DNA of 32,000 bases from Nitrososphaera viennensis EN76. Lineage in GTDB: Archaea > Thermoproteota > Nitrososphaeria > Nitrososphaerales > Nitrososphaeraceae. The notes beneath the pieces are model-generated. The model had not been told where the DNA came from and made no database searches. It was given only the letters and a program-made list of their open reading frames with translations. Positions 688-16,885 of the stretch are shown here, piece by piece; positions within the stretch are counted from its first letter, which is position 1; each line of letters starts with the position of its first letter. A program made the position numbers and the translations under genes. The DNA is taken from NCBI RefSeq assembly GCF_000698785.1, contig NZ_CP007536.1, forward strand, positions 1,260,001-1,292,000, written 5' to 3'.

Positions 688-696
688 GTAGTTTAC
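688..696 (+). promoter_or_regulatory. GTAGWTTAC motif copy (GTAGTTTAC)
   Basis: Exact 9-mer in the intergenic region, about 93 nt upstream of the 396..599 start. Confidence 0.35.
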
Positions 697-786
697 GGAT
701 AATCGTCGATTGCCTGTGGCAAGCAGGGAATTAGCGGCTGTACAGGTGCGCGACAAGGCAAAATCGAGTGGATGAGGAGAAAGGGC

Positions 787-1263
787 CTAGCGCACCACAA
801 GAACGGGGCAGGGTGAGTGGTTTATCACGGCGTTTGTGACGCTTCCAACCAAGAGTTTCTTGAACGTGGACTGGCCCCTTGAGCCCATGACGATAAGATC
901 CACGTTATTTTTCTTGGCATATTCTGTTATCACGCCCACTTCGTGGGTACCGTCGTCAGGCAGTATTTCGGCTTTGGCGCTAACGTTCTGCTTGGCGGCA
1001 TCGTCTACTATATCAGACATCCACCGCTCAGCGGACTTTATCCTTGCTCTCCGAAAGCCCTCGACGAGCCGGACGTTGCCGTACCGGGCCTGGAGGCCTA
1101 TGGCGCCTCCCTGCTTGACATTTTCGACGACGTGCATGATGACCAGCTTGGCACCCTCCACCTTTGCAATGTGTACTGCATATTGCGCGGCCTTGCTGGA
1201 AACAGGCGATCCGTCAACAGGGACGAGGATCTTTTTCACCGAGACGTCTGCTGCGCCGGTCAT
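787..1263 (-). CDS. universal stress protein (UspA family)
   Basis: 158 aa. Typical USP layout: KKILVPVDGS near the N-terminus and a C-terminal ATP-binding region (LIVMGSRGQSTFKKLLVGSVTNAVINHSPCPVLVV). Confidence 0.9.
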   Translation of the reverse strand: MTGAADVSVKKILVPVDGSPVSSKAAQYAVHIAKVEGAKLVIMHVVENVKQGGAIGLQARYGNVRLVEGFRRARIKSAERWMSDIVDDAAKQNVSAKAEILPDDGTHEVGVITEYAKKNNVDLIVMGSRGQSTFKKLLVGSVTNAVINHSPCPVLVVR

Positions 1264-1317
1264 GATGATGACAATTGTTATTTCGAGATCGCCTAGAAAA
1301 GTCTTGCCTGTTTAGCT

Positions 1318-1326
1318 GTAGATTAC
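1318..1326 (+). promoter_or_regulatory. GTAGWTTAC motif copy (GTAGATTAC)
   Basis: Exact 9-mer, intergenic, centred about 59 nt upstream of the usp start (1263). GTAGATTACGCAT here matches GTAGTTTACGCAT upstream of ureA. Confidence 0.35.
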
Positions 1327-1350
1327 GCATCACAATTATCATTACCATCG

Positions 1351-1854
1351 TCAACCCCGCAGGAGCACATAGTCGCGCCCAAACACGAAACCGATCCACA
1401 TCAGCGCGCCCTTTTGGAACACGACTGCCATCTGCGATGCGATCTCGCCTGGCGCAACGTCGCTTTTGCCCTCCTTGCGCGCAAGGGCCATCTCGTCCGG
1501 CTGCACAAACAGCGGCATCTTGACCTCCGGCAGGCCTTTTTCCTTGCGCATGTGATTCAGCATATTCAGTATCAGATCAAGGTCATGCTTGACATCAGGG
1601 AGAAGCAGGTTTTCTCTGTATACGGCAACAATGTCGGTGGTGCCGCCGTTCTTGACCCTTGCGACCCGGAATAGCGCCGGGAGTTTTTTCCATTCGGGAT
1701 AAAATTCAGTCAGTGCCGAAACCAGCTCGTCGATTTCACCCCGGAAGGCCGACAGGTCGTCCTCGCTCCCGCGCTTTTGCCGCGCGATTATCTTTTCGAT
1801 CTCGGATTTTACCTGCAAAACGTCCTTGAGAGGCTTGACGTTAAAGAGCACCAC
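1351..1854 (-). CDS. hypothetical protein (167 aa)
   Basis: Track ORF with a GTG start at 1854. The composition looks protein-like and no competing ORF has better support. No family recognised. Confidence 0.6.
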   Translation of the reverse strand: MVLFNVKPLKDVLQVKSEIEKIIARQKRGSEDDLSAFRGEIDELVSALTEFYPEWKKLPALFRVARVKNGGTTDIVAVYRENLLLPDVKHDLDLILNMLNHMRKEKGLPEVKMPLFVQPDEMALARKEGKSDVAPGEIASQMAVVFQKGALMWIGFVFGRDYVLLRG

Positions 1855-1926
1855 AAAGATAGGCGGCTCTTGCTTTTCAATGTTGCCGTGAAAAATGAAA
1901 AACGCAAGAAAAAAAAATTTATGCTG

Positions 1927-2088
1927 CTACTTGTGCGTCTTGTGTCGTGATTCTGGCCTTTCGTACGTCGTGCTTTCGATCCTTTCAAGGTCGCGCTCTA
2001 TGCCCGGCTGGAACTTGTTCTTGGCGTACCAGACGGCGGCGGCGCTTCCCCCGATTATCGCTGCAACTGTGATCGCTTCCTCGAGCAT
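1927..2088 (-). CDS. candidate small membrane protein (53 aa)
   Basis: Below the track length cutoff and translated by hand: MLEEAITVAAIIGGSAAAVWYAKNKFQPGIERDLERIESTTYERPESRHKTHK*. It has one hydrophobic helix then a charged tail. A TATA-like GGTTTATATGC lies about 25-30 nt upstream. It looks more coding than the overlapping + strand ORF 1895..2140. Confidence 0.3.
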   Translation of the reverse strand: MLEEAITVAAIIGGSAAAVWYAKNKFQPGIERDLERIESTTYERPESRHKTHK

Positions 2089-2259
2089 ACGCTTTCAATG
2101 CGGCCTTTTGCATATAAACCCTGATTGTAGGATAATATGAGAAACCGCAAATATTATGCTACGGAAATTCTGTATTATTATTTGTAAAGTAGAAGAATTA
2201 TCACACCACAAGCTCATAAACAATATATTTATTACAACAAGGCGTACCAAGCGAGATTT

Positions 2260-2268
2260 GTAAACTAC
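2260..2268 (-). promoter_or_regulatory. GTAGWTTAC motif copy (reads GTAGTTTAC on the minus strand)
   Basis: Exact 9-mer (forward GTAAACTAC) in the AT-rich spacer 2089-2280. Confidence 0.3.
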
Positions 2269-2280
2269 GCACGCATACGA

Positions 2281-2802
2281 CTACAAGCTCAGGACCCGCT
2301 TGGCCTCGCTGACCCGGTCGAGCAGATCCTTCAGGAAAATGTCGGCAAACTGGTCAAACGTAAACACGGAATATTTCTGGCGGTATTCCTGCTTGCGCTT
2401 CTGGTACTCTTCCTCCAGCCACCGGAAATCCGATTCTTTCAGCTTGACGATGAAATTCTGCGACTTGGCTTTTGACTCGAACATGTTGAGCATAAAGTAG
2501 CTGGCAAACTGGGTAAAGCTGTTTGCGCGGTACCTGCGGTTGTACTCTTCCTTGTATTTTTCAAAGTTCTCGTCAAGCCATGCCTTGACGTCTGACCTGA
2601 TGGTAAGCGACGTATAGCGGCCGCCGAAATCCTCCTTTATGGCGCACGTGTCCACCGTGTAGTAGCCGCGCTTTATCTCGTTCATAAGGATGATGAGAGC
2701 GCTAGGGAGGAACATACCTGGATAGTACTCGTCCGTTATCTGTTGCAGCTTCGCCAAGATGGCTGGCTTTAGGCCTATCGTGGCATATCCTTGGCTAGGC
2801 AT
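2281..2802 (-). CDS. hypothetical protein with a possible ribbon-helix-helix N-terminus and an internal duplicated helical module
   Basis: 173 aa. The N-terminus (YATIGLKPAILAKLQQITDEY) looks like a strand-helix RHH start. Two approximately 34-aa repeats, W75-F108 and W128-L161, share WL-E---K-K-EY---Y----F-QFA--F. Confidence 0.65.
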   Translation of the reverse strand: MPSQGYATIGLKPAILAKLQQITDEYYPGMFLPSALIILMNEIKRGYYTVDTCAIKEDFGGRYTSLTIRSDVKAWLDENFEKYKEEYNRRYRANSFTQFASYFMLNMFESKAKSQNFIVKLKESDFRWLEEEYQKRKQEYRQKYSVFTFDQFADIFLKDLLDRVSEAKRVLSL

Positions 2803-2871
2803 ACAGAAGATTCAAGCCCTCTTGCATCTAAATAACCTTTTTATAAAAAAGAAGAGGTTTTGAACCCTGCC

Positions 2872-4395
2872 CTACCTCCCCACTGGCTCCATGTAGCCCT
2901 TCAGGTCCTCGCCCCTGACGACATCCTCTTCTGGTGGGACATATTCGATGACGCCGTGCCTCTGCTCCCCGGGGTATCTTTTCTGCGTCGCAAGCGCGAC
3001 TATGATAAACGCTGCAAACGATATGGGCGGAGGTATCATCGTGTCAAGGCCCGCGTACTCTGCAGGAATAGTCAGGAACAACAGGAGCCTGATGGCAGAG
3101 CCCACGATGAGCGACGTGATCGCAGCAGGCATGTTGGCCTTTTTCCAGAACAGCCCAAGTGTGAGCGGGGCCCAGGCGCCGGCAAACACGATGTCAAACG
3201 CAAGCACGAGGTAGATTCCCGGCTGCGGGAGCAGGTATCCGAGGATAAACGCCGCAACCATCATCGGTACCGTAAAGAGGCGCGTGGTCATGAGCAGTTT
3301 TTTGTCCTCCATGCCAGAACGTTTCAGCATCCTGCGCAGGATGTCGCGCTGGATGATGTTCCTTGACATGACCGATGATATCGCAAGGAGCCCGCCGTTG
3401 GCAGTAGACATCGACGCGCCAAGCACGCCCATCATGAGCGCGGCCCCTATCGGAAACGGCATGTGGTTTATCGCAAGCTCCGGGTAGGCCGTAAACGGAT
3501 CTGCGATGTTTGGAAGCACAAAGAGCGCGATTATGCCCATCATGCTGGTCGGGATGACCGTAAACAGGGTGAGGCCGGCGCCCATGAACGCGCCGCGCTG
3601 CGCCGTCCTGCCGTCCCTTGCCGCAAAAACCCGCTCCATAAAGTCCAGCGCCACGATGTCGCCGAGGCCAAGCGCCATTATGCTTGCCCAGTTGACGTAC
3701 GCGCCGTTTGCCGGGTCAGTGAGCCCTGACAAATCAAGGTACGCGGGCGGCGCGTTGCCAAGTATGGTGCCAAAGTCGACGCCGTAAAAACCGCCTGCAA
3801 AGAACAGGAACGCCGCCCAGAACGCGCCTATTGCAAGATATATCTGGAAAATGTCCGTATAGGCAGACGAAAAGAGGCCGCCTGCGTACGTGTAGACCAA
3901 GACTATTAGCGCGGCGATAAGCATGCCCCAGAAAAGGTCGATTCCAAAGACAGATTGCAGAATAAAGCCGCTTGCTGCAAAGTTGCCGGCGACAAGCACG
4001 ATGAAGCTTATCATCATGAGCACGCCTGAAATGCCTTCGGCGCCGTTGCCAAAGCGCCGGTAGTAAAAGTCAGGCAACGTCAAAAGAGCCATCTTGTTCA
4101 GCCTCTTGCCGTAAATGGTCCCTGTGAGTATGAGGCATATGCCCAAGCCTATCGGGATTGCGGCGCCGGCCCAGAATCCAAACTGGTACACCAAAGACAC
4201 GTTTCCAAGCGACGAGTTGCCATCGATTGACTGCGCGGCAAGCATCGTTCCCACAAAGAACAGAGGGAGACTTTTTCCGGCGACCATGTACCTCTTGCTA
4301 CTTTTCTTTACAAGCCTTGATGTCAGCGTGCCAACGACAAGCGACAGCACAAGGAATGCCGTAATAGCTATTCCAAACCCGTCCAGCCCAGCCAT
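2872..4395 (-). CDS. sodium:solute symporter (SSS/SSF) family transporter, putative urea transporter
   Basis: 507 aa, polytopic and very hydrophobic, with an SSF-like sequence. Thaumarchaeal urease loci are known to be accompanied by SSS-type (DUR3-like) urea transporters. The substrate is inferred from context only. Confidence 0.88.
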   Translation of the reverse strand: MAGLDGFGIAITAFLVLSLVVGTLTSRLVKKSSKRYMVAGKSLPLFFVGTMLAAQSIDGNSSLGNVSLVYQFGFWAGAAIPIGLGICLILTGTIYGKRLNKMALLTLPDFYYRRFGNGAEGISGVLMMISFIVLVAGNFAASGFILQSVFGIDLFWGMLIAALIVLVYTYAGGLFSSAYTDIFQIYLAIGAFWAAFLFFAGGFYGVDFGTILGNAPPAYLDLSGLTDPANGAYVNWASIMALGLGDIVALDFMERVFAARDGRTAQRGAFMGAGLTLFTVIPTSMMGIIALFVLPNIADPFTAYPELAINHMPFPIGAALMMGVLGASMSTANGGLLAISSVMSRNIIQRDILRRMLKRSGMEDKKLLMTTRLFTVPMMVAAFILGYLLPQPGIYLVLAFDIVFAGAWAPLTLGLFWKKANMPAAITSLIVGSAIRLLLFLTIPAEYAGLDTMIPPPISFAAFIIVALATQKRYPGEQRHGVIEYVPPEEDVVRGEDLKGYMEPVGR

Positions 4396-4404
4396 ACCCT
4401 TATC

Positions 4405-4427
4405 TTATATATTTAGTAAATATATAA
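4405..4427. promoter_or_regulatory. 23-bp perfect palindrome TTATATATTTA-G-TAAATATATAA, the presumptive TATA/operator of the SSS transporter gene
   Basis: Read directly. The distal arm is centred about 26 nt upstream of the ATG at 4395, which fits a leaderless transcript. It is 22/23 identical to 16599..16621. Confidence 0.5.
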
Positions 4428-4440
4428 AACTTGCTAAGAT

Positions 4441-4460
4441 AAAAAGTTCGACTGTCGAAC
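4441..4460 (-). terminator. hairpin plus oligo-T, a candidate terminator of the 4479..4751 gene
   Basis: Perfect 7-bp-arm palindrome GTTCGAC-T-GTCGAAC (4446..4460), 19 nt downstream of the stop. On the minus strand it is followed directly by TTTTT (4441..4445). Confidence 0.35.
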
Positions 4461-4478
4461 GCGCGCGTACGTCCACCA

Positions 4479-4751: not shown

Positions 4752-4796
4752 GCTTGATGGGTGCCTGCGAATGATATAAGCATTGAGATAAAAACT

Positions 4797-4805
4797 GTAA
4801 ACTAC
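4797..4805 (-). promoter_or_regulatory. GTAGWTTAC motif copy (reads ACGTAGTTTAC on the minus strand)
   Basis: Exact 9-mer, centred about 50 nt upstream of the 4479..4751 start. A one-mismatch variant, GCGTAGACTAC, lies at 4828..4838. Confidence 0.35.
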
Positions 4806-4905
4806 GTATCTAGCCTTGCAGCATGATGCGTAGACTACAACTGGTAGGAAAAAGTATCCGGGATCTTCATTATTGAAGGCGTTTTGCAGGATAATTTATA
4901 AATAC

Positions 4906-4914
4906 GTAGATTAC
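4906..4914 (+). promoter_or_regulatory. GTAGWTTAC motif copy (ACGTAGATTAC)
   Basis: Exact 9-mer lying between the TATA-like TTTATAAATA (4893..4902) and the ParB-like ATG (4928). Confidence 0.4.
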
Positions 4915-4927
4915 TAATACTTTTGCG

Positions 4928-5677
4928 ATGCAGGTCAAGAACATCCCTGTCAACATGATAGACATAGCCGAGGAAAACGTCAGGAAGGACCACTCTTTCG
5001 GGGAGGACGACAAGGACAGGCTCATCAAGGAGCACTTGTCAAAGTTTGACCTGCTGCAGCCGGTCGTCGTGCGCTTTGACGACAAGAGCAGGCGCTACAA
5101 GCTGCTGATAGGGCGCAGGCGCTTTTTCGCGCTCAGCGCCAAGGGCGAGACCCAGATACCCGCCGTCGTCACTGAGCTGGAGGGCGCAGAGGCAGAAGCC
5201 GCGTCGCTCTTTGAGAACCTCATAAGAAAAGACCTGTCGCCGCTTGAAAAGGCAAGGATGGTCAAGAGGCTCGTCGACACCACAAAAGCAGGCATTACAG
5301 GTGTAGCGGCAAAGTACGGCCTGCCAAAGAGCACGGTGAGCGAGTGGCTCAGCATATTATCATTGCCGCAGGTGCTGCAGGACAACATCGACCAGGGCAG
5401 GATAACTTCGTACGAGGCCATCAGGATAGCAAGAAAGCCAAAGACTGTGCAAGAGAAACTGGTAGTCGCGGCGCAGGAGGGCAGGCTGCAGGAAGAGATG
5501 GCCGAAGCAGGGGTAAAGCGCGGGGCGCCAAAGGGCCTGCTGACTGTCCGCCTTGTGTTCGACCCGAGGAAAAAATCCGACAAGCAGCTGTGGGAAAAGC
5601 TCAACGCAAAGGCAGAGGAGAGCGGCCTTGACGTCACCGACTATGCGAGGAGCATCCTTTCAAGGCACGTGCAGTAA
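4928..5677 (+). CDS. ParB/Spo0J-like N-terminal domain protein with HTH (orphan, no ParA adjacent)
   Basis: 249 aa. The ParB-type N-domain carries the arginine patch (LLIGRRRFFAL, compare the GxxRxxA box). It is followed by an HTH resembling ParB (ITGVAAKYGLPKSTVSEWLSILSLPQVLQ). Confidence 0.8.
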   Translation: MQVKNIPVNMIDIAEENVRKDHSFGEDDKDRLIKEHLSKFDLLQPVVVRFDDKSRRYKLLIGRRRFFALSAKGETQIPAVVTELEGAEAEAASLFENLIRKDLSPLEKARMVKRLVDTTKAGITGVAAKYGLPKSTVSEWLSILSLPQVLQDNIDQGRITSYEAIRIARKPKTVQEKLVVAAQEGRLQEEMAEAGVKRGAPKGLLTVRLVFDPRKKSDKQLWEKLNAKAEESGLDVTDYARSILSRHVQ

Positions 5678-5688
5678 GACACACGCAC

Positions 5689-5697
5689 GTAGATTAC
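5689..5697 (+). promoter_or_regulatory. GTAGWTTAC motif copy (GCACGTAGATTAC, distal)
   Basis: First copy of a 13-bp direct repeat, GCACGTAGATTAC (5685..5697), repeated at 5728..5740. Confidence 0.4.
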
Positions 5698-5731: not shown

Positions 5732-5740
5732 GTAGATTAC
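5732..5740 (+). promoter_or_regulatory. GTAGWTTAC motif copy (GCACGTAGATTAC, proximal)
   Basis: Second copy of the 13-bp direct repeat. It is centred about 56 nt upstream of the ureohydrolase ATG (5792), just upstream of the TATA-like ATATTTAAGAAAT. Confidence 0.4.
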
Positions 5741-5791
5741 TTAGCAATATTTAAGAAATACTTACTAATTACTTACAGGTGCTGAAAAGGC

Positions 5792-6940
5792 ATGGGAATG
5801 GAATTTTACGGTGATTCGTACAAGGGAAATGACGAGCCGATTTTTGTAGGCATACCAACCTTCCTAAAGCTGCCCTGGCTAAGGAGCAAGGCAGAGCTGG
5901 AAAAAGTCAGGCCGGACGTGGCCATCATAGGAGAGCCGTTCGACTTTGGCACCACCATCCGCCCGGGAGCAAGGTACGGCCCAAGGGCAATCCGCGCGGC
6001 CTCGACCGTCCCGTCCCCGCCGTACGAGCACTTTAACATAGAGACAGGCGTCGACCCGTTTGGCGTGTTCAGGACAGTCGACTATGGCGACGTCAACATA
6101 TCGCCCGGCGACGTGGTAGAGTCGCACAGGCGCATGACAGAGAAGGTGAAGGAGGTGCTTGACATCGACGGCATCCCGGTGATGCTTGGCGGAGATCATT
6201 CAATTACGTTTGCCAACGTGCGCGCCTTTGCAAAAAAATACAAGAACATCGGCATGATCCACATCGACACCCATGCCGACTGCGCGCCGCAGGGCCTGAC
6301 AGGCTTCAAGTACGACCACGGCGCCCACATCCGCAGGATAATGGAGCTTGGGTGCCTCAAGGGCAAGAACTACACCCTCATCGGCCCGAGGGGCTACTGG
6401 CCGGGGCCGGACCTCTACAAGTGGATGGCCGACCAGGACTTTCAGTGGTTCACTATGCTCGACGTTGAAGAACTTGGAATCGACAAGATAGCAAAAGAGG
6501 CAGCAGACAGGGCAAACGACAACGTCGACGCAGTCTACATCAGCTGGGACATTGACACGTTTGACCCCGCGTATGCGCCGGGAACAGGCGAGCCGGAGCC
6601 AAACGGCCTGACTTCCAGAGAAGGCATGCGCCTCATGCGCCTGCTTTCGACGTCATTTGACCCGGACAGGTTTGCGTTTGACCTTGTCGAAGTCGCGCCA
6701 AACTATGACGTAAGCGACGGAAGCTCGTACAATGGTGGCATCACGTCCGGCCTTGCCAACAGGCTCATTGTCGAGTTGCTTGCCGGCCTGTCGCTGACAA
6801 AGAAGGGCAAGACGGAAGGGACCCCGGTGAGGCCAAACCTCTACCGCGGAAAAGGCCACACGTACGACTTTGGCAACGGACCCAAGGCCAAGGTGCCAAA
6901 GAGGCCGCCCCTGAACTACGGCCCAAAGGTAAAGAGGTAG
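5792..6940 (+). CDS. arginase-family ureohydrolase (agmatinase-like) with a roughly 50-aa basic C-terminal extension
   Basis: 382 aa. All arginase-family metal-binding motifs are present: GGDHSIT, IHIDTHADC (DxHxD) and SWDIDTFDPAYAPGTG (SxDxDxxDP). The substrate (agmatine or another guanidino compound) cannot be told from the sequence. Confidence 0.9.
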   Translation: MGMEFYGDSYKGNDEPIFVGIPTFLKLPWLRSKAELEKVRPDVAIIGEPFDFGTTIRPGARYGPRAIRAASTVPSPPYEHFNIETGVDPFGVFRTVDYGDVNISPGDVVESHRRMTEKVKEVLDIDGIPVMLGGDHSITFANVRAFAKKYKNIGMIHIDTHADCAPQGLTGFKYDHGAHIRRIMELGCLKGKNYTLIGPRGYWPGPDLYKWMADQDFQWFTMLDVEELGIDKIAKEAADRANDNVDAVYISWDIDTFDPAYAPGTGEPEPNGLTSREGMRLMRLLSTSFDPDRFAFDLVEVAPNYDVSDGSSYNGGITSGLANRLIVELLAGLSLTKKGKTEGTPVRPNLYRGKGHTYDFGNGPKAKVPKRPPLNYGPKVKR

Positions 6941-6943
6941 CAG

Positions 6944-7348: not shown

Positions 7349-8242
7349 TCAGTGCGCGTGCCTGTGATCCTTTTCATGCGCGTGTGCGTGTACGTGCACC
7401 ACCACCCCATGTGAGTGCATGTGGTACTTTTTGCGCAGAAACGAGTACAGCGCAGATATGCCAAATGCGGCCGCTCCAAACAGCACAATCGTAGCGCCTG
7501 ACGCTGAGTCGAGGAAAAAGCTGGAATACATGCCGGCAAAGGCAGTAGCCGCGCCTATCGCGGTAGAAAGTGCAAGCATCTTTTGAAAGTTGTTTGTCAG
7601 CATCCTTGCAGAGATGGCCGGCGCAACTATGGCGGCCGCAAGCAAGGTCACGCCTATTGCAGACATTGACGCGATCACGACCGTGGCAAGGATGAACGAA
7701 AACGCCAGCTCCACTGTTTCCACCCGGATTCCATAGACCCGGGCCGTGTCCTTATCAAAGAGCGTAAAGAGCAGGCGCTTGTGGAAGAACGTGATGAACA
7801 GCGCCGTTGCGGCAGTGGCTATTGCTATCATGGCCACATCCTGGCCGGTTATCCCAAGTATGTTGCCAAAGAGTATCGATTCAAAGTCGCGTGTAAAGCT
7901 CCGGGTGGTGCTTATCAAGAGCACGCCGACTGCAAAGCCGGCTGTGGTGACGACGCCTATCGCCGCGTCGGCCTTGATCTTGCTCCTGCGGCTTATCTCG
8001 TTTATCGCAAACGCCGAGAGGAACCCCCACAGGGCGGCCCCAATGTACATGTTAAAGCTCAGGATATAGCTCACGACGGCGCCGCCAAACACCGCGTGCG
8101 ACATGCCATGCCCGATGTAGCTCATGCCGCGCAGGATTATGTAGACCCCAAGGAGCCCGCAGGAGCCCCCGACCATTATGGCGACCAGTATCCCCCGCGT
8201 GAAAAACTCGTATTGGAACGGCTGCAGCAGAAGGTCCATCAT
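7349..8242 (-). CDS. metal ABC transporter permease (ABC-3, ZnuB/TroC/MntB-like) with a His-rich C-terminal tail
   Basis: The track ORF extends to 8362, but that part overlaps the ATPase gene. ATG at 8242 (MMDLLLQPF...) lies 2 nt after the ATPase stop. The protein is polytopic. Its last 24 residues, HMHSHGVVVHVHAHAHEKDHRHAH, contain 10 His. Confidence 0.85.
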   Translation of the reverse strand: MMDLLLQPFQYEFFTRGILVAIMVGGSCGLLGVYIILRGMSYIGHGMSHAVFGGAVVSYILSFNMYIGAALWGFLSAFAINEISRRSKIKADAAIGVVTTAGFAVGVLLISTTRSFTRDFESILFGNILGITGQDVAMIAIATAATALFITFFHKRLLFTLFDKDTARVYGIRVETVELAFSFILATVVIASMSAIGVTLLAAAIVAPAISARMLTNNFQKMLALSTAIGAATAFAGMYSSFFLDSASGATIVLFGAAAFGISALYSFLRKKYHMHSHGVVVHVHAHAHEKDHRHAH

Positions 8243-8244
8243 CG

Positions 8245-8976
8245 TCAGCGTCCCCCCTCCGTGTCCACCACCAGCCCGTAGGTTGCAAGCAGGTTTTCGT
8301 TGGTCAGTATGTCGGCGGGCCGCCCCTGCGATATTATGCGCCTGTTCATGCACACGACCCACGGGAGCCGGCGCGCCACGCCCGAAATGTCGTGCGTGGT
8401 GAGGATCACCGTGACGCCCTTTTGGTTCAGCTCGCCAAGCACGCCAAGTATCGCCTCCCGGGTGGCGTGGTCGACGCCGGAGGTCGGCTCGTCAAGCACG
8501 AGTACGTCAGGGGAGCGGATCATCGCCCTTGCAAGAAAGACGCGCTGCTGCTCGCCCCCGGAAAGCTCGCTTATCTGCCGCGACGCGTAATCGCCTATGC
8601 CGAGGCTTTCAAGTACGCGCATTATCGCCTCGCCGGCGGCGCTTCCTATCCACGGGCCCCTGCCCGAGCTATTCCACACGCCCATCGACACGACCTCCTT
8701 GACGGTGACCGGGAAATTCCAGTCAACGCTTTCCACCTGCGGCACGTACCCTATTTTGCGCCCCCTTTCTAGGTCCACAGAGCCGTGCCACGGCTTGACA
8801 AGGCCGGCTATCACCTTCAAAAGCGTAGTCTTGCCCGAGCCGCTTGGCCCCAGGATGCCGACAAAGCTCCCTGCGGCTATGCTCAGGTTGACGCCCTCTA
8901 TCACCGGCCGGTTGTAAGAGTAGCCGTAGGTTACTTCCCCGAGCGTGACTGCGCCGGCCGCCTTCATTCCTGTCAC
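8245..8976 (-). CDS. metal ABC transporter ATP-binding protein (ZnuC/TroB-like)
   Basis: Walker A GPSGSGKTT, ABC signature LSGGEQQR and Walker B VLVLDEPTSGVD. The start overlaps the upstream SBP stop (ATGA). Confidence 0.92.
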   Translation of the reverse strand: MTGMKAAGAVTLGEVTYGYSYNRPVIEGVNLSIAAGSFVGILGPSGSGKTTLLKVIAGLVKPWHGSVDLERGRKIGYVPQVESVDWNFPVTVKEVVSMGVWNSSGRGPWIGSAAGEAIMRVLESLGIGDYASRQISELSGGEQQRVFLARAMIRSPDVLVLDEPTSGVDHATREAILGVLGELNQKGVTVILTTHDISGVARRLPWVVCMNRRIISQGRPADILTNENLLATYGLVVDTEGGR

Positions 8977-9995
8977 AAATCCCCCGTATACGTATCAGCA
9001 GGATCTATGTCTGAAAGCGCGTCGACGTTTCCGCCAAGTGGGACTATCATGTTGCGCATGTTTTCAAGCATCATGCCAACGTAGGTGTGTCCGGGCTCGC
9101 CGGCGTTGCCCGGCAGCGCGTCGTCCCGCAGCGTTTCTACGACCTGGACGTTGGCTTCCTTTGCTATCTGGTCGACCACCTTGCTCTGGAACACCTCGGA
9201 AGCAAATATTGCCGGCACTTTTTCCTGGCGTATCTGGTCGATTATGCTTGCCACCTCCTGCGGAGTCGGCTCGCCAAAGTCTGACGGCTGCACTGCCCCT
9301 ATCACCTTCATGCCGTAGCGGGGCGCAAAATAGGCCCACGAGTCGTGGTACGTGAGAAGCTTGCGTTGCTCGGCAGGGATCGTCTGTACAGACGCCATGA
9401 TGCCCTGGTCAAGCCTCTGGAGCAGCGCAAGGTACCTGTCCGCGTTGGCCCTGTAATAGTCTGCATTGCCAGGGTCCATCTCCACCAGCTTGTCGCGCAC
9501 AAGCTGCGCGTACTTTATGGCGTGGGCGACGTTGAGCCACAGGTGCGGGTTAGGATCGCCGCCCTCTTCAGGGAAGCTAAAGTCAAAGACCCACTGGTCG
9601 CGGGTTATGGTGCTGTCCGCCAGCCTCAAAATCTGGAGGTCTGGCTTGCCGGCAGCTTGTGCCACCCTTTCGATGTCGGTCTCCAGATGGAGGCCGTTTA
9701 TGATGACGAGGTCGGCTTTTCCGACGGCGATCGAGTCTGAGGGCGCAAGCTCAAAAGTATGGGAATTCACGCCTTCCGGCACAAGGCCGGTGAGCTGTAT
9801 CCTGTCGCCTCCAACATTTCTGACGATGTTTGTTATCGGCGCCACAGACGTGACAACTGCCAGCTTTTCGCTCTCCACGCTGGCAGGGGTAGGGACAGGG
9901 TTTGCGCCCGCAGACATGGCGGCCACCCCAATTATCGCCGCCACGACCACAATGGCCGCAATTATCCCTATTGCTTTAGCGTTTGCCAACTGCAA
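8973..9995 (-). CDS. metal-binding ABC substrate-binding protein (cluster A-I, TroA/ZnuA/PsaA family), membrane-anchored
   Basis: 340 aa with a TTG start and an N-terminal hydrophobic anchor. Family-typical ligand contexts are NSHTFE, NPHLWL, YHDSWAYF and LRDDALP. Metal specificity cannot be determined from the sequence. Confidence 0.88.
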   Translation of the reverse strand: MQLANAKAIGIIAAIVVVAAIIGVAAMSAGANPVPTPASVESEKLAVVTSVAPITNIVRNVGGDRIQLTGLVPEGVNSHTFELAPSDSIAVGKADLVIINGLHLETDIERVAQAAGKPDLQILRLADSTITRDQWVFDFSFPEEGGDPNPHLWLNVAHAIKYAQLVRDKLVEMDPGNADYYRANADRYLALLQRLDQGIMASVQTIPAEQRKLLTYHDSWAYFAPRYGMKVIGAVQPSDFGEPTPQEVASIIDQIRQEKVPAIFASEVFQSKVVDQIAKEANVQVVETLRDDALPGNAGEPGHTYVGMMLENMRNMIVPLGGNVDALSDIDPADTYTGDL

Positions 9996-10013
9996 ACGCC
10001 TCCACAGAAACTA

Positions 10014-10041
10014 GTATTACTGTATTGTATTTGCGTAATAC
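10014..10041. promoter_or_regulatory. NikR-operator-like palindrome GTATTAC-N14-GTAATAC (site A)
   Basis: Perfect 7-bp inverted repeat read directly. It is centred 32.5 nt upstream of the ABC operon start (9995). Confidence 0.5.
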
Positions 10042-10095
10042 CATATTCATCCCAACTGTTGCGCGAGGTAAGATAAAAAGTTTCTACAATTATCA

Positions 10096-10104
10096 GTAAA
10101 CTAC
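10096..10104 (-). promoter_or_regulatory. GTAGWTTAC motif copy (reads GTAGTTTAC on the minus strand)
   Basis: Exact 9-mer, about 105 nt upstream of the ABC operon start and in the same orientation as the operon. Confidence 0.3.
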
Positions 10105-10246
10105 CCAAGTTCACTTGGAAACGAATGTGTAGAATACACAACAGGATTCTGCCGACATCGGCTAAATACTCGCACTGAAAAACAGACGATTTGTGTGGAA
10201 GGGCGGCAAGCACGATATGGATTCTGGAAACAATAATGCAAAAAAC

Positions 10247-10403
10247 TACACTGTTAAGTTGGCTGCGCATTTTGCCCTTTTTATTCGGATGTTAAGTTAC
10301 GGATGGTTTTTTGGCATGGTGAACACCTGTACGTCGCACAATATCACCCGCAAGTTAACGCCTGGCAGAAAAGATGGAAATCAGCAGCCAACTTAACAGT
10401 GTA
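10247..10403. mobile_element. MITE-like non-autonomous element (157 bp) with 20-bp perfect terminal inverted repeats and an 8-bp flanking duplication
   Basis: TIR TACACTGTTAAGTTGGCTGC at 10247..10266 has its exact reverse complement at 10384..10403. CAAAAAAC lies immediately outside both ends (10239..10246 and 10404..10411). There is no ORF inside. Confidence 0.55.
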
Positions 10404-10525
10404 CAAAAAACGGTACTGTTAACTTATCGTTGGCTACACTTCCACTTCATAATTTTATTAGTAGATGATAAGTTAACGTACCAATTACCGACATATTTTT
10501 TAGGAACGCAAGCCTATGTCAACTA

Positions 10526-10553
10526 GTATTACTTTACTTGAAATAAGTAATAC
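10526..10553. promoter_or_regulatory. NikR-operator-like palindrome GTATTAC-N14-GTAATAC (site B)
   Basis: Perfect 7-bp inverted repeat. It shares the 13-mer AACTAGTATTACT with site A and is centred 37.5 nt upstream of ATG 10577. Confidence 0.5.
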
Positions 10554-10576
10554 GAAAAGAGAATGTATGGAAATTG

Positions 10577-10789
10577 ATGCTCGACAAAAGCAAAAAGGCT
10601 ATCCGTGTCCTGATAATAATCATCGCGTCGATCACGCTGATTGTAATGGTATTTGGATATATTTCTACACAACATAACGTCTTGATAAGAGGTACCAATT
10701 CGCCAACAAGTGCTCCTACTAAACTCTGTGATAGCATACTATCTCTTCCATGCTTCGACAACCAGTCTCGTCAACAGTATAGAAGATGA
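10577..10789 (+). CDS. candidate small membrane protein (70 aa)
   Basis: Track ORF (TTG 10574 or ATG 10577) with one clear hydrophobic helix (AIRVLIIIIASITLIVMVFGYI). Support comes mainly from operator-like site B lying at the same distance as in the other sites. The region is AT-rich, so it could be spurious. Confidence 0.3.
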   Translation: MLDKSKKAIRVLIIIIASITLIVMVFGYISTQHNVLIRGTNSPTSAPTKLCDSILSLPCFDNQSRQQYRR

Positions 10790-10959
10790 CCTTCAACTCA
10801 TTTTCTTGCCTTCAGACGAACCTAGGTGTACGGTAGAGCCTGTGCGTGTCCATGTGTGTATTATATGCGATCATCCGGAAGATAGAAAAATCGAAAACGA
10901 ATAGTATGCTACTCTATGCTACAACACATTATCACACGTATCTAACAATACATGTGTCT

Positions 10960-11370
10960 CTACTTATCTTGGAAGGAGCGGCGAAATCCATTCATCGTGG
11001 AACTTCTTGTAGTCTTTGTATAGGCAGGCGAATGAAACGAAGGATCTTTCAGAGAACTAAAATCATATACTTCGTAGGATTGAATAATATCTCCAAACAG
11101 GTTTCTGCAGATGTCACTCTCTTCATCGGCTATTTCCTCTGATTCAAACGACTGAATAGATATCCAATCATATCTACCTTTTGTGCGCCCAGAAAACAAC
11201 ACAAAAGGAGCATCAACAAGGTATTTTTTCAAACTTTCGATCCTCATCGGAAGATGTTGCGATGTTCTAAATATTATAAGAACAACCCGTATTACGTGTT
11301 TTCGAATTTCCTTTCTCCTTTTTGCGGGCTCCGCCACCATATCGACAAAAATGTCTTTGCTGTCTCCCAT
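10960..11370 (-). CDS. hypothetical protein (136 aa)
   Basis: Longest ORF in the AT-rich islet, with an ATG start. Operator-like site C is centred 37.5 nt upstream. No family recognised. Confidence 0.45.
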   Translation of the reverse strand: MGDSKDIFVDMVAEPAKRRKEIRKHVIRVVLIIFRTSQHLPMRIESLKKYLVDAPFVLFSGRTKGRYDWISIQSFESEEIADEESDICRNLFGDIIQSYEVYDFSSLKDPSFHSPAYTKTTRSSTMNGFRRSFQDK

Positions 11371-11391
11371 TATGACAAGAAGGATTATTTG

Positions 11392-11423
11392 TAGTAATAA
11401 GTTTTACCATAAAAGTATTACTA
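11392..11423. promoter_or_regulatory. NikR-operator-like palindrome TAGTAATA-N16-TATTACTA (site C)
   Basis: Perfect 8-bp inverted repeat. It has the same 28-bp core geometry as sites A, B and D (GTAATAa-N14-GTATTAC at 11394..11421). Confidence 0.45.
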
Positions 11424-11558
11424 GATATAAAGTGTAAAAAGATCAGAGGATCACCCGAGCATATCTATGCCAGCAAGTAGCATTTCACAATGCATCAATC
11501 AACATAAAATGTCAAAATGTGAAGCCTTATCGGTGCCCAAACCATGTGTTTTGTCGTT

Positions 11559-12005
11559 TCAGACAACCGAGACAAAATGCACTTTCAGGCTTTTTATCCC
11601 GCGGTTTTCAGACAGCTTTTTGGCAAGCTCCTTTATCCGCCTTATTTCTCCCTTCACCATCACCGTCTCGAGGCAGTTGTCGTGGTCAAGGTGCAGATGG
11701 GTCGAGGCGCTGATGATATCGCTGTAGTGGTGCTGTACGTGCGTAGACTCTGAATCGTGGTTGTACGCATGGTTGTCGTACAGCATCATTATCGCGCCTG
11801 CGCCGTTGCGGCTGTCTTCGCCCTTGTCCCAGTCATACTGGGCTATAAACGAGTGCAGAGCAGTCTGTATGGCCTTGGACCTGTCTGAAAAACCGGCGCT
11901 CTTCATAGACTTGTCAAATTCCGACAGCAGGTCTGGCGAGAGGGACATGCTGATGCGCTCGACTGGCTCTTTTTTCCGGTGCTTGTGCGAATGGCGCTTT
12001 GACAA
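11559..12005 (-). CDS. nikR: nickel-responsive transcriptional regulator NikR
   Basis: 148 aa. The RHH N-domain (ERISMSLSPDLLSEFDK...RSKAIQTAL) is followed by a C-terminal metal-binding domain, HVQHHYSDIISASTHLHLDHDNCLE. That matches the E. coli NikR His/His/His/Cys ligand region (QHHHH...LHVHINHDDCLE). TTG at 12005 is the only start that keeps the RHH strand, and it adds a His-rich N-terminus (KRHSHKHRKK). Confidence 0.9.
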   Translation of the reverse strand: MSKRHSHKHRKKEPVERISMSLSPDLLSEFDKSMKSAGFSDRSKAIQTALHSFIAQYDWDKGEDSRNGAGAIMMLYDNHAYNHDSESTHVQHHYSDIISASTHLHLDHDNCLETVMVKGEIRRIKELAKKLSENRGIKSLKVHFVSVV

Positions 12006-12047
12006 GTGCTTTTAATATAGTGGCAAGCAATTTAAAAGTTTAAAAAG

Positions 12048-12077
12048 AGTAATACTTTTTAGCTAAAATTTATTACT
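12048..12077. promoter_or_regulatory. NikR-operator-like palindrome AGTAATA-N16-TATTACT (site D)
   Basis: Perfect 7-bp inverted repeat in the nikR upstream region. It is centred 57.5 nt from the nikR TTG and 36.5 nt from the divergent ATG at 12099. Confidence 0.5.
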
Positions 12078-12098
12078 AAGCTGTGCATCTACAATTGC

Positions 12099-12266
12099 AT
12101 GACACTTGAACCGGTTATTGTCAAGCTTGCCAGAAGAAGAAAAGAGATCGCACGGATGGGCATGTATAGAGACGAAAAGTACGTGTTTTCCAAGGCGCCC
12201 GACTCTGATCCTGTAGGGCTTCTTCTGAAAGAGGCTAGAAAGAATATTCTTCCTTCTTCTTCCTAA
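12099..12266 (+). CDS. candidate small protein (55 aa), divergent from nikR
   Basis: Below the track cutoff and translated by hand: MTLEPVIVKLARRRKEIARMGMYRDEKYVFSKAPDSDPVGLLLKEARKNILPSSSS*. GC rises at its start. Site D sits at the same distance from its ATG as sites B and C do from theirs. The 3' end overlaps the thermosome stop by 4 nt. Confidence 0.3.
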   Translation: MTLEPVIVKLARRRKEIARMGMYRDEKYVFSKAPDSDPVGLLLKEARKNILPSSS

Positions 12267-13978
12267 TAGTAGTGGTGCATGGGGCGCTGCTGCTTGCCCA
12301 GCTTGTCAAAGTGGTCGTGCACCTGCTTGCCGCCGCGGTGCGAATGAGTCGTGCCGTCAGAGTGAGTGTGGGTATAGTAGGCAGGCTTGGCCATCACCAC
12401 ATCATCGACGCGCAAGAGCAGGTCGGCAACTTCGGCTGCTGCAGTCATCACCTGCTCCTTGACTGCAAGTGGCTCTATGACGCCAAGCGCAAGCATGTCC
12501 TGCACCCTGCGCTCCAGCGCGTTTATGCCGCACCAGCCGCCTCCCTTTCCTTTTTCCTTGGTGCCGGCAGCGCGCAGCTGCGCCTGCACGTCAATGACAT
12601 CCATGCCGGCGTTTGCCGCAATTGTCAGCGGGATCTCTTCAAGCGCGTCTGCAAACTTTAGGATCGCAAGCTGCTCCCTGCCCTCCACTGTCAGGGCGCT
12701 TTCCCTCACTGCCCTTGCGGCAAGGGCCTCTGCGGCGCCTCCACCTGCAACCACGGACGGGCTTGCGACAAAGTCGCGCAGAACGTTCAGTGCGTCAAGG
12801 ATGGAGCGGTGGAACTCGTCAAGAACCTTGGCAGAGCCGGCGCGCAGGAGTATTGTGACAGAGCGCGGGTTTCTGCATTCTTCCACAAAGACCATCCTGT
12901 CATCGCCCACAAACCTTTCGCAGACTCTGCCAGCGTAGCCAAGGTCAGACTGTGAAATGCTGTCAAGGTCTCTTGTTATTTTTGCGCCCGTGGCTTTTTC
13001 CAGCCACCACAGGTCGTTTTCCTTTACCCTGCGCACAGACATGATGCCGGCATGCGCAAGCATGGTCTGCGCAAGCGTGTTGATGCCTCCGCGCGATATC
13101 ACGACGTTTGCGCCCGAGTCGATTATGGTCTGCACCTTTCGTCGCAGCTCAAAGGCCTGCTCGTCAAGGTACGCCCTGATCTGCGCAGGGAGCGTGATCC
13201 CGATCTCCGCGTCGGCGCGCGTGTTCTTTTTGCTGTCAAGGTCATAGTCGATGAGCAGGATTTTTGCATTGTCAATTGACTTGGGCATCGACGAGCTGTC
13301 GACAGTCTTGTCGATGACGATGCCGGCGACAAGCTGCGTGTCTTGTACGCTGCCGGGCTTTTGCTCCATCTTGACGTCGTCGATTTCCAGCCTGCCGGAT
13401 GCAGGATCGGAAACAACTGCCATTACTGCGTCAACCACCAGCCTTGCGATGCGCTCCTTTTCCATGCAGGACGAAATCGCCTTTGACTCCAGGCACGTCG
13501 TGGCGAGGCGCTCCATCGTCTTTCTGTCAGAATTATTTGCGTGCTTTATCGCGTGCGACAAGAGGGCGTCCATCGCGGTGGCAAGGGCCCGGCGGTAGCC
13601 GTCAGAGATGGTTGCAGGGAGAACGCCAAGCTCGAGAAGCTCCTCTGCCCTTGCCACAAGGGCGCCCGCAAGGACAACCACAGAAGTGGTGCCGTCGCCC
13701 ACCGCGTTGTCGACTGCGGTTGAAGCCTCGATGAGCACCTTTGCCGCCGGGTGCTCGACGTCAATCTTGCGCAGGAGCGTCGCGCCGTCCTTTGTCAGCG
13801 TCACCTCTCCCATGATGTCGACGAACACCTTGTCCATGCCCCGGGGACCAAGCAGCCCCTTGACCATCTCTGAGATGAGCCTGGCCGCAAGCATGTTGTA
13901 CCTGCGCGCTTCGCCCCCGCTCGTCCTTTTTACTCCTTCGCCAAACAGCTCTTGGCCTTTTGGCTGCGCGGCCATCAT
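12263..13978 (-). CDS. ths: thermosome subunit (group II chaperonin, Cpn60/TCP-1 family) with an atypical His-rich C-terminal tail
   Basis: 571 aa. Hallmark motifs are LGPRGMDK, GDGTTS, VAGGGAAE and IDVEHPAAK. The last 38 aa, YYTHTHSDGTTHSHRGGKQVHDHFDKLGKQQRPMHHYY, contain 8 His in place of the usual Gly/Met-rich tail. Confidence 0.95.
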   Translation of the reverse strand: MMAAQPKGQELFGEGVKRTSGGEARRYNMLAARLISEMVKGLLGPRGMDKVFVDIMGEVTLTKDGATLLRKIDVEHPAAKVLIEASTAVDNAVGDGTTSVVVLAGALVARAEELLELGVLPATISDGYRRALATAMDALLSHAIKHANNSDRKTMERLATTCLESKAISSCMEKERIARLVVDAVMAVVSDPASGRLEIDDVKMEQKPGSVQDTQLVAGIVIDKTVDSSSMPKSIDNAKILLIDYDLDSKKNTRADAEIGITLPAQIRAYLDEQAFELRRKVQTIIDSGANVVISRGGINTLAQTMLAHAGIMSVRRVKENDLWWLEKATGAKITRDLDSISQSDLGYAGRVCERFVGDDRMVFVEECRNPRSVTILLRAGSAKVLDEFHRSILDALNVLRDFVASPSVVAGGGAAEALAARAVRESALTVEGREQLAILKFADALEEIPLTIAANAGMDVIDVQAQLRAAGTKEKGKGGGWCGINALERRVQDMLALGVIEPLAVKEQVMTAAAEVADLLLRVDDVVMAKPAYYTHTHSDGTTHSHRGGKQVHDHFDKLGKQQRPMHHYY

Positions 13979-14124
13979 CTAACGCACAAGCCTCCTTCGC
14001 AGTCACTTGATCGGGCGGCAAAACCAAGTGATGACGGCATATATGCCTAGGATGTGGCTCTCCTTTGTATTTATGCAGTTCTCGCCGGTCTGTATAATAC
14101 GAAACCGTGTGCGCAAACGCGCAA

Positions 14125-14133
14125 GTAGTTTAC
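14125..14133 (+). promoter_or_regulatory. GTAGWTTAC motif copy (GTAGTTTACGCAT)
   Basis: Exact 9-mer centred about 55 nt upstream of the ureA ATG, just upstream of the TATA-like CATAAATAC. Confidence 0.4.
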
Positions 14134-16883: not shown

Positions 16884-16885
16884 AC

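Follow-up and report, generated by a model that had tools for sequence, protein, structure and literature searches.

Ammonia-oxidising archaea drive nitrification in soil and ocean, and to our knowledge almost no regulator-operator pairs are known in these organisms, for which genetic tools are lacking. We analysed a 32,000-nucleotide stretch of the Nitrososphaera viennensis EN76 genome (hereafter the window) in which a 9-mer, GTAGWTTAC, recurs among the genes of a urea and nitrogen cluster. An initial annotation had read this word as a candidate cis-element of that cluster, which raises two questions: is the 9-mer an operator of these genes and, if so, which protein reads it?

The box is local to one gene cluster

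The cluster, conserved among ammonia-oxidising archaea, comprises an arginase-family ureohydrolase, a UreA-like protein, an SSF transporter and a thermosome paralog; in N. viennensis it additionally holds urease, usp, a metal ABC importer, a ParB-like gene and small genes. All nine exact copies of the 9-mer given in the initial annotation were recovered with their coordinates and strands, as were the one-mismatch variant at 4830, the (A/G)CGTAG flank at 4797, 4830, 4906, 5689 and 5732, the TACGCAT end at 1318 and 14125, and the distances to start codons (59, 50, 56 and 55 nt in a nearer group; 99, 94, 105 and 93 nt in a farther one). The boxes and their weaker partners are as follows.

645 to 653, minus strand: weak partner, GTAGTATAC, of the 688 box at a spacing of 43 bp, adjoining the TATA box of the 67-aa gene and centred 50 nt ahead of that gene's ATG
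688 to 696, plus strand: box, GTAGTTTAC, distal at the 67-aa gene (396-599, minus strand) and centred 93 nt ahead of its ATG; ortholog kept in L033
1318 to 1326, plus strand: box, GTAGATTAC, single copy at usp (787-1263, minus strand), 59 nt ahead of the start; conserved in L033
2260 to 2268, minus strand: box, GTAGTTTAC, 12 nt past the stop of the 173-aa gene, with a TATA-like sequence next and the 53-aa gene 176 nt downstream
4797 to 4805, minus strand: box, GTAGTTTAC, proximal at the 90-aa gene, centred 50 nt ahead of the ATG, with the TATA box about 22 nt downstream
4830 to 4838, no strand assigned: fully palindromic box, GTAGACTAC, spaced 33 bp from the box at 4797 and 76 bp from that at 4906
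4906 to 4914, plus strand: box, GTAGATTAC, at the ParB-like gene, where it lies past the TATA box but ahead of the ATG; conserved in seven relatives
5689 to 5697, plus strand: distal copy in the ureohydrolase promoter, preceding the ATG by 99 nt
5732 to 5740, plus strand: most conserved copy, proximal in the ureohydrolase promoter; it precedes the TATA region by 6 nt and the ATG by 56 nt
10096 to 10104, minus strand: box, GTAGTTTAC, in front of the metal ABC-transporter operon (7349-9995, minus strand), with a TATA-like sequence about 20 nt downstream
10129 to 10137, plus strand: weak partner, GTAGAATAC, 33 bp from the 10096 box
14092 to 14100, no strand assigned: weak partner, GTATAATAC, spaced 33 bp from the box at 14125; the TATA box of the thermosome paralog lies about 22 nt downstream of it
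14125 to 14133, plus strand: box, GTAGTTTAC, in the divergent spacer between the thermosome paralog and ureA, 55 nt before the ureA ATG

Nine exact copies compare with 0.16 expected in the window (shuffles: sd 0.39, maximum 2). The whole genome of 2,527,938 bp contains 25 copies, nine of them within these 13.4 kb, and the broader palindromic class GTARWYTAC has 41 genome copies with ten inside one 20-kb bin, as against 39 copies and at most 3 per bin for a composition-matched control word. The intergenic placement reported earlier was confirmed: none of the ten GTARWYTAC copies in the window falls within a real ORF, while long ORFs contain 21 of the 31 found in the rest of the genome. The absence from housekeeping promoters likewise held up, GTAGWTTAC being missing from the stretch of the window that carries housekeeping genes (14134-32000). 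Since the box occurs outside the cluster at background level and mostly in coding sequence, it behaves as a local operator and not as a general promoter word; the genome-wide count that had been proposed thus bears out specificity for the urea and nitrogen cluster and enrichment there, but not a wider role at promoters.

The 9-mer itself proved real but too narrow a definition. Orthologous promoters yield the consensus (A)CGTA-N3-TAC, of which GTARWYTAC is the Nitrososphaera form; judged by these promoters, the conserved core is CGTA-N3-TAC and the 9-mer its strong form. Boxes of this core number 13 in 15 kb against 0.80 expected (P = 4e-12), and the weak partners at 645, 10129 and 14092 had gone unlisted. 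Nine of the ten GTARWYTAC boxes in the window are asymmetric hybrids. The copy at 2260 had been placed in a convergent spacer, a reading that did not hold: the 81-aa plus-strand ORF there is spurious, and the box lies upstream of a conserved 53-aa membrane-protein gene on the minus strand (1927-2088), a position kept in L032, L033, L034, L042, L056 and L057. On this sequence evidence, we take the box to be a regulatory DNA element nearly confined to the promoters of one urea/guanidino-nitrogen gene cluster.

Box positions are conserved and phased

Orthologous promoters keep the box at equivalent positions in two archaeal families. At the ureohydrolase promoter its centre lies 49-59 nt before the ATG in 31 of the 33 genomes with the 173-aa gene, and weak boxes orthologous to that at 14092 are found in relatives. 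Among the eight loci lacking the ParB-like gene that were first examined, a box is present at all eight ureohydrolase promoters and at seven of the eight SSF promoters, and 27 of 55 box positions are concentrated in 1.9% of the sequence. The usual arrangement is a strong and a weak box with 33, 43, 63 or 73 bp between them; spacings in relatives form a ladder of 33-34, 43, 62-63, 72-73 and 82 bp, that is, a phasing of about 10 bp, and all pairs in the N. viennensis genome spaced 33, 43 or 76 bp lie within the cluster. For the proximal box, the distance to the TATA box downstream is about 20-24 bp and that to the ATG about 50-59 nt. The proposed location, just upstream of the TATA box and some helical turns further, is therefore one that both families preserve.

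Some boxes also stand 33-124 bp ahead of the TATA box, and others follow it. This scatter, the absence from 14134-32000 and the background frequency genome-wide exclude the box as a core promoter element (BRE/TATA). The 4906 box, between TATA box and start codon, appears from its placement to occupy a repressor-type position at the ParB-like gene.

The 13-bp direct repeat GCACGTAGATTAC at 5685 and 5728 might suggest that the copies arose by chance or stem from a dispersed repeat or mobile element; a dispersed repeat is an alternative that the initial annotation had itself raised. However, shuffles never reach nine copies, information content is near zero and similarity absent past about 4 nt on either side of the core, the copies are not scattered over the genome, and box position is conserved across families despite diverged flanks. 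Chance, a dispersed repeat and a MITE are ruled out on these grounds, and we regard explanations of this kind as scarcely credible.

Candidate binders of the box

The following genes and sites bear on the identity of the binder.

2281 to 2802, minus strand: gene for a 173-aa orphan protein, with its own TATA box; best candidate box binder
4928 to 5677, plus strand: ParB/Noc/KorB-family gene; its product is an unlikely box binder and the probable binder of a second palindrome
4446 to 4460, no strand assigned: second palindrome, GTTCGACTGTCGAAC, ahead of the SSF transporter gene, whose TATA box lies about 25 nt downstream
16576 to 16590, no strand assigned: second palindrome, GTTCGGCAGCCGAAT, ahead of the 84-aa gene next after ureC, at a distance of about 46 nt

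Because a nikR gene lies inside the cluster (11559-12005), urease is a nickel enzyme, and related guanidinases likewise use nickel (PMC11410670), the box could be a nickel-responsive NikR operator of the urease/nickel cluster; NikR is a ribbon-helix-helix (RHH) protein, and its half-sites here, GTAWTAC, resemble GTA...TAC. Four perfect GTAWTA-N16-TAWTAC palindromes (10014, 10526, 11394 and 12049; 0.00 expected), however, form a separate set with the classical NikR architecture, while the boxes have no N16 partner and are paired at 33 or 43 bp. At the ABC operon, box and NikR-type palindrome stand side by side, the palindrome (10014-10041) being located between the TATA-like sequence and the start codon. 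Since NikR has these four palindromes of its own, it is very improbable as the box binder.

The ParB-like protein is a more conspicuous candidate, which might bind the box as KorB binds its RK2 operators. Its gene is bracketed by five box copies, one of them between its own TATA box and ATG, and was lost along with the boxes in the clade of G041, G043 and G064. The protein has a genuine ParB fold with an HTH domain (Pfam ParB_N and HTH_ParB; matches to Noc and ParB in the PDB at about 1e-18 and to KorB at 7e-6; Foldseek E-values of about 1e-11) and possibly an RHH-like C-terminus. Its GERR motif reads GRRR and its ENLQRE motif ENLIRK, invariantly in 18 orthologs; the arginines are kept and both glutamates replaced, which makes CTPase activity uncertain. 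Against its binding the box, ten genomes of another family, complete or 99% complete, lack an ortholog and carry only paralogs of at most 30% identity at other locations, and nonetheless keep the box at the same distance to the ureohydrolase start and wherever SSF promoters were examined; conversely, G040 has the ortholog but no box cluster. The asymmetry of nine of the ten window boxes is also a poor fit to a symmetric homodimer. What the ParB-like protein tracks instead is the second palindrome, GTTCGRCNGYCGAAC, whose single whole-genome copy in G040 lies at the ParB-like promoter and which is missing from G041 and G043, both without the ortholog. Box binding by the ParB-like protein is thus quite unlikely; judging from this distribution it probably binds GTTCGRCNGYCGAAC, so that this conspicuous gene would serve a different site.

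The 173-aa gene, in contrast, is inherited together with the box. In an ORF-family clustering of 16 loci, its family alone occurred in every one of the 15 loci with boxes and not in the one locus without. In the high-quality set, the box is present in 22 of 24 genomes that encode the protein, compared to 1 of 11 that do not (Fisher P = 3.7e-6, a value uncorrected for phylogeny that overstates the support, as the genomes are related). Box and gene are jointly absent from at least five separate clades, counted on the ureohydrolase gene tree and not on a species tree, and the cluster has been transferred between families (G158). In one clade the gene is pseudogenised, with 4 stop codons, and the boxes have decayed. 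The exceptions are G236, with the gene and the second palindrome in place of the box at its ureohydrolase promoter; G006, with the gene and a one-mismatch box; G227, with an AT-only box and no 173-aa gene; and six MAGs (73-90% completeness) with the box, in which the gene was undetected.

The 173-aa sequence has no match in Pfam, NCBIfam or PDB sequences and represents an unannotated family, found in Nitrososphaeraceae and in a second family of small-genome ammonia oxidisers. Its AF2 model (pLDDT 85.6) consists of two beta-alpha-alpha units, the sole strands being residues 6-11 and 64-69, each followed by two helices, and the strand residues are conserved across families. The best Foldseek matches were RHH chains of the F relaxosome (probability 0.97 with a weak E-value of 0.048; member protein unnamed), and VirC2 ranked 10th, among E-values that are weak at 0.05 or higher. 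The model predicts a single-chain, pseudo-dimeric tandem RHH protein.

The link between the 173-aa protein and DNA is one that we infer, and the binder could instead be a regulator encoded elsewhere or a specialised TFB/TBP paralog with which the 173-aa protein merely co-travels. Thaumarchaeal genomes carry many TFB paralogs, and the proximal box abuts the BRE/TATA region. An outside factor fails, however, to explain why boxes decayed exactly where the 173-aa gene was lost and the targets stayed (at least five clades), and boxes 33-124 bp upstream of the TATA box or downstream of it are unlike a core-promoter element; we therefore consider an outside binder unlikely. The 173-aa protein could also have another role, for example in enzyme maturation, and travel with the target genes of the true regulator. 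Taken together, it is reasonably probable that the box is the operator of the cluster and that the cluster-encoded 173-aa protein, its most likely binder, would read it.

Proposed mechanism and comparison with known systems

Under this reading, one 173-aa molecule would read one box via its two-stranded ribbon, and boxes on the same face of the DNA (33, 43, 63 or 73 bp apart) would be bound cooperatively, perhaps through the C-terminal helical hairpin. As the proximal box abuts the BRE/TATA region, occupancy could control access of TBP and TFB; at the ParB-like gene, a protein on the box between TATA box and start codon would block polymerase recruitment. The initial annotation had favoured an activator or co-regulator site, of which the cis-regulatory position is borne out. 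Box-less clades have the same TATA region and intact genes 91-95% identical, and since they lost box and candidate regulator yet keep core promoter and genes, the balance tips slightly toward a repressor or non-essential modulator. We lean toward repression relieved by a signal, and infer both the sign and the signal.

These results provide a precise conserved candidate operator (phased pairs of CGTA-N3-TAC, about 50 nt ahead of the ATG), a putative local regulon of defined extent (guanidino-type ureohydrolase, SSF transporter, thermosome paralog, urease and metal importer) and a named candidate regulator from an unannotated family. The pair is testable in vitro with recombinant protein and short DNA, and offers a handle on how ammonia-oxidising archaea choose urea or guanidino compounds.

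The closest structural likeness is to the single-chain tandem RHH proteins TraY (F plasmid) and VirC2 (Ti plasmid): in structure, relaxosome RHH chains and VirC2 come closest to the 173-aa model, whose two beta-alpha-alpha units likewise have strands predicted to pair into one ribbon, and such a pseudo-dimer would fit the mostly asymmetric box GTAG-W-TTAC. The 173-aa protein differs in showing no sequence similarity to them and in its extra C-terminal helical hairpin, and TraY and VirC2 are plasmid-transfer accessory factors at oriT and not chromosomal transcription regulators. RHH repressors of the MetJ/Arc/CopG type share with the present system short (pseudo)palindromic ACGT-containing boxes (the MetJ box is AGACGTCT), several per promoter and probably cooperative, and a regulator, here a candidate, encoded beside its targets; unlike theirs, the boxes here do not abut but stand 33-82 bp apart in helical phase, at archaeal BRE/TATA promoters. 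NikR is comparable as an RHH reader of GTA..TAC half-sites in the same cluster, with nickel-enzyme genes, but its 16-bp-spacer dyads are a separate set to which the box does not belong. In archaeal regulators such as SurR and TrmBL1, site position sets the effect, and here too sites lie mostly just upstream of BRE/TATA and downstream of it at the ParB-like gene; these regulators belong to winged helix or TrmB fold families, as opposed to a predicted RHH.

KorA and KorB of RK2, with their operators OA and OB, offer a parallel at the level of the whole gene set: a ParB-family protein and a small second DNA-binding protein, each with its own palindromic operator, the operators being interleaved at many promoters, and KorB is among the structural matches of the ParB-like protein. 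The differences are that the targets here are chromosomal, archaeal and catabolic and that the box is independent of the ParB-family partner. A comparable two-protein, two-operator module may, rather doubtfully, run the Nitrososphaeraceae cluster, with the ParB-family protein (possibly CTP-binding) loading at the parS-like GTTCGRCNGYCGAAC, the tandem RHH protein on phased CGTA-N3-TAC boxes, and the two cooperating, for instance by clamp capture or looping, to switch organic-nitrogen catabolism. If true, ParB-type clamps would become part of archaeal gene regulation.

A local, phased box at the promoters of the nitrogen cluster

All nine copies of GTAGWTTAC reported for the window in the initial annotation were recovered at the same coordinates and on the same strands, against an average of 0.16 and a maximum of 2 expected from dinucleotide-preserving shuffles, and its one-mismatch copy at 4830, flank extensions and all eight start-codon distances were likewise correct on re-check. 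Across the single 2,527,938-bp contig (52.7% G+C), of which the window covers 1,260,001-1,292,000, this 9-mer occurs 25 times in total, and nine of these copies fall inside 13.4 kb of the window; it is therefore a strictly local word, so that the genome-wide count sustains its proposed role as an element of this cluster and speaks against a general promoter word. The palindromic class GTARWYTAC has 41 genome copies, of which a single 20-kb bin contains ten, compared with at most three per bin for a composition-matched control word (39 copies). The first 15 kb of the window contain 13 occurrences of the wider form CGTA-N3-TAC versus 0.80 expected (P = 4e-12).

The intergenic location originally proposed also held, as all ten GTARWYTAC copies in the window lie outside real genes. 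Further regulon members elsewhere in the genome were considered and rejected, since the 31 outside copies are mostly coding (21 lie inside long open reading frames). The intergenic ones (e.g. at 796901, 1347046 and 1210290) have no partner box, neighbor unrelated membrane genes and are treated as chance occurrences. An Rfam search at the boxes returned no RNA family.

The consensus was derived from aligned promoters of orthologous genes in about 50 related genomes, where the box recurs at the same position, giving a positive outcome to the conservation check suggested at the outset. The forms found at the matching promoter position are GTAGATTAC, GTAAATTAC, GTAATTTAC or GTAAACTAC in Nitrososphaera, and GTAGTTTAC, GTACTTTAC, GTATATTAC, GTACTATAC and similar sequences in a second, small-genome family (31-57% G+C). 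The invariant part is (A)CGTA-N3-TAC, which flank preferences extend to a loose 13-17-bp palindrome. An origin as a fragment of a repeat element is excluded because similarity ends about 4 nt to either side. The majority of the strong boxes are paired with a weaker partner.

Box pairs in the window and their spacing
645 and 688: 43 bp
4797 and 4830: 33 bp
4830 and 4906: 76 bp
5689 and 5732: 43 bp
10096 and 10129: 33 bp
14092 and 14125: 33 bp

Genome-wide, every GTA-N3-TAC pair with a spacing of 33, 43 or 76 bp belongs to the cluster. When every locus is counted, the spacings rise in steps of about 10 bp, through 33-34, 43, 62-63, 72-73 and 82 bp; since orthologs do not provide independent sites, this ladder serves as a description only. 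Of the ten boxes in the window, nine are hybrids of asymmetric form (GTAG...TTAC); the rest of the genome has hybrids and true palindromes in equal measure (16 versus 15). The box is a local, conserved and phased element at defined promoter positions.

Measured from its center, the proximal box precedes the ATG by 50-59 nt at the 67-aa gene, usp, the 90-aa gene, the ureohydrolase gene and ureA. Its distance upstream of a TATA-like sequence is about 22-24 nt at the 90-aa gene, ureA and the thermosome paralog (which has a long leader) and about 20 nt at the ABC operon, and is shorter at the ureohydrolase gene (about 11 nt) and the 67-aa gene (about 5-18 nt); no clear TATA-like sequence was found in the usp promoter. 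The thermosome paralog and ureA have divergent promoters that share one box pair, and at the ParB-like gene (4928-5677) a box sits between the TATA box and the ATG. The box at 2260 is upstream of a conserved minus-strand gene (1927-2088) for a 53-aa membrane protein that contains a single hydrophobic helix and the motif AKxKFQPEIER and also occurs in a sister genus; an 81-aa plus-strand reading frame there (1895-2140) was rejected as spurious, being interrupted by stop codons in relatives. In Nitrososphaeraceae, a further conserved element, ATACTTACTAATTA / TATTTACTAAAT (5757-5772 and 4407-4420; related loci L070-L073), immediately follows the TATA box at the ureohydrolase, SSF and ParB-like genes; it could be an initiator region or another site.

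The target genes suggest a role in organic-nitrogen use. The arginase-family ureohydrolase (5792-6940) is closest to guanidinobutyrase and to nickel-dependent guanidinases (PMC11410670); its conservation greatly exceeds that of its neighbors (92-98% identity inside the genus, 75-83% between families), and a divergent UreA-like gene always comes next. Urease and urea-transporter genes were co-upregulated in a copper-limitation study of N. viennensis, in which the reported motifs differ from the box (PMC7785015). Antisense within the urease large-subunit gene lies an Rfam match to 5_ureB_sRNA (15013-15299, minus strand, 62.7 bits), which may merely reflect conserved coding sequence.

Co-inheritance of the box with an orphan gene

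The box is co-inherited with the gene for an orphan 173-aa protein (2281-2802, minus strand), homologs of which occur in several genera and in the second family. Unbiased clustering of the reading frames of 16 loci singled out this family alone: each of the 15 loci with boxes contains it, and the one locus without boxes does not. When the comparison is limited to high-quality genomes, 22 of the 24 with the gene have the box, as does 1 of the 11 without it (Fisher P = 3.7e-6, uncorrected for relatedness). The ureohydrolase cluster occurs without the 173-aa gene in the whole of a sister genus (seven genomes), in G111, in three genomes of a third family, in G197 and in G041, G043 and G064; genomes of this kind have no box and an unchanged TATA region. 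Decay is visible in G064, where four in-frame stop codons interrupt the 173-aa gene, now a pseudogene (locus L052, G064:C140 4155-4558), and the ParB-like gene and both operator types have also been lost, and in G043, where only a one-mismatch remnant of the box is left at the 90-aa gene promoter.

Gene and box are jointly absent at no fewer than five separate places on the ureohydrolase tree; the genomes are related, and this gene tree is not the species tree because the cluster appears to have been transferred between families (G158). The locus in question, L072 (G158:C11), belongs to the small-genome family and holds a Nitrososphaera-like version of the whole cluster, with a 97% identical ureohydrolase and with the ParB-like gene, both operators and urease all present, which suggests such a transfer. 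Exceptions to co-inheritance are G236, which has the 173-aa gene and, at the ureohydrolase promoter, the second palindrome GTTCGRCNGYCGAAC and no box; G006, with a one-mismatch box; and six metagenome-assembled genomes (73-90% completeness) with boxes, in which the gene was not detected and in which absences are uncertain.

Other candidate binders and a second palindrome

The leading alternative at first was that the box is bound by the ParB/Noc/KorB-family protein of the cluster, whose gene has boxes on either side and disappeared along with every box in the G041/G043/G064 clade, itself nested among box-bearing genomes. However, complete genomes lacking an ortholog of this protein keep the box. 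In ten complete or 99%-complete second-family genomes of this kind, the box stands 49-52 nt before the ureohydrolase ATG in 10/10, and in the eight loci examined in full it is present in 7/8 SSF-transporter promoters, often as 33-bp pairs, with 27 of 55 box positions falling within 1.9% of the sequence. What tracks the ParB-like protein is instead the second palindrome, GTTCGRCNGYCGAAC, so this protein was dropped as the box binder. A genome of another genus, G040, has a distant ortholog (56% identity) and no box cluster, and carries its only copy of GTTCGRCNGYCGAAC directly upstream of the TATA box of its own ParB-like gene, while G041 and G043, without the protein, have no copy.

GTTCGRCNGYCGAAC, whose half-site resembles parS, has three copies in the whole genome, two of them in the cluster. 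One (4446-4460) is about 25 nt upstream of the TATA box of the SSF gene, a place taken in ParB-less genomes by the box, and the other (16576-16590) is about 46 nt before the 84-aa gene that follows ureC. Both placements are kept in relatives, some of which also have the palindrome between the two ureohydrolase-promoter boxes or flanking the ParB-like gene. The ParB-like protein is probably a second regulatory layer, specific to Nitrososphaeraceae and acting through GTTCGRCNGYCGAAC. Its arginine patch is retained, but two glutamates are gone from the GERR and ENLQRE motifs, which read GRRR and ENLIRK invariantly in 18 orthologs; its last 45 residues have a strand-helix-helix look and a weak NikA-like match (E = 0.005).

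NikR (11559-12005) was rejected as the box binder because a separate set of four perfect palindromes in the classical NikR-operator layout, GTAWTA-N16-TAWTAC, exists in the vicinity of nikR and upstream of the ABC importer (0.00 expected).

NikR-type palindromes in the window
10014-10041
10526-10553
11394-11421
12049-12076

At the ABC operon one such palindrome separates the TATA-like sequence from the start codon, and the box pair is upstream. The other small proteins of the cluster (90, 167 and 67 aa, UreA-like, usp) were also discarded, being encoded in box-less loci or not universal.

Predicted fold, proposed mode of action and comparison with known systems

Searches of Pfam, NCBIfam and PDB sequences found no match to the 173-aa family, which is unnamed or misnamed in public records; a profile search against PDB sequences also returned nothing. 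An AlphaFold2 model built with 16 homologs (pLDDT 85.6) contains strand 6-11, two helices, strand 64-69, two more helices and a helical hairpin. With these as its sole strands, the modeled topology is that of a single-chain, pseudo-dimeric ribbon-helix-helix (RHH) protein. The top Foldseek matches, with weak scores, are F-plasmid relaxosome chains (E = 0.05, probability 0.97), with VirC2 tenth; these are RHH-type proteins. The parts most conserved across families are both strands and the first helix pair.

Such a protein would bind the box through the ribbon, and the asymmetry of nine of the ten window boxes would be accounted for by its pseudo-dimeric form. Binding would be cooperative for two boxes sharing a helical face, the proximal box adjoining the BRE/TATA region would control initiation, and the box downstream of the TATA box would repress the ParB-like gene. 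The 173-aa gene has its own TATA box and no copy of the box, as expected for a steadily expressed regulator. Most RHH regulators are repressors. We lean slightly toward repression here, because lineages that have lost the regulator along with the boxes retain an unchanged core promoter and target genes that are intact and highly conserved. By analogy, a KorA/KorB-like cooperation between the 173-aa and ParB-like proteins is possible.

Tests of class membership rejected the box as a NikR operator, a parS/OB site, a core-promoter element or a repeat element. Since neither the motif nor the protein family was found described in the searchable literature, they are filed as a putative new regulator family and its operator, predicted from sequence and model to control a conserved nitrogen-catabolic cluster in ammonia-oxidizing archaea. 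By sequence and predicted fold, the system would work like the RHH repressors that use repeated operator boxes (MetJ, Arc, CopG), with a candidate reader whose modeled architecture resembles that of TraY and VirC2, RHH proteins of the single-chain type.
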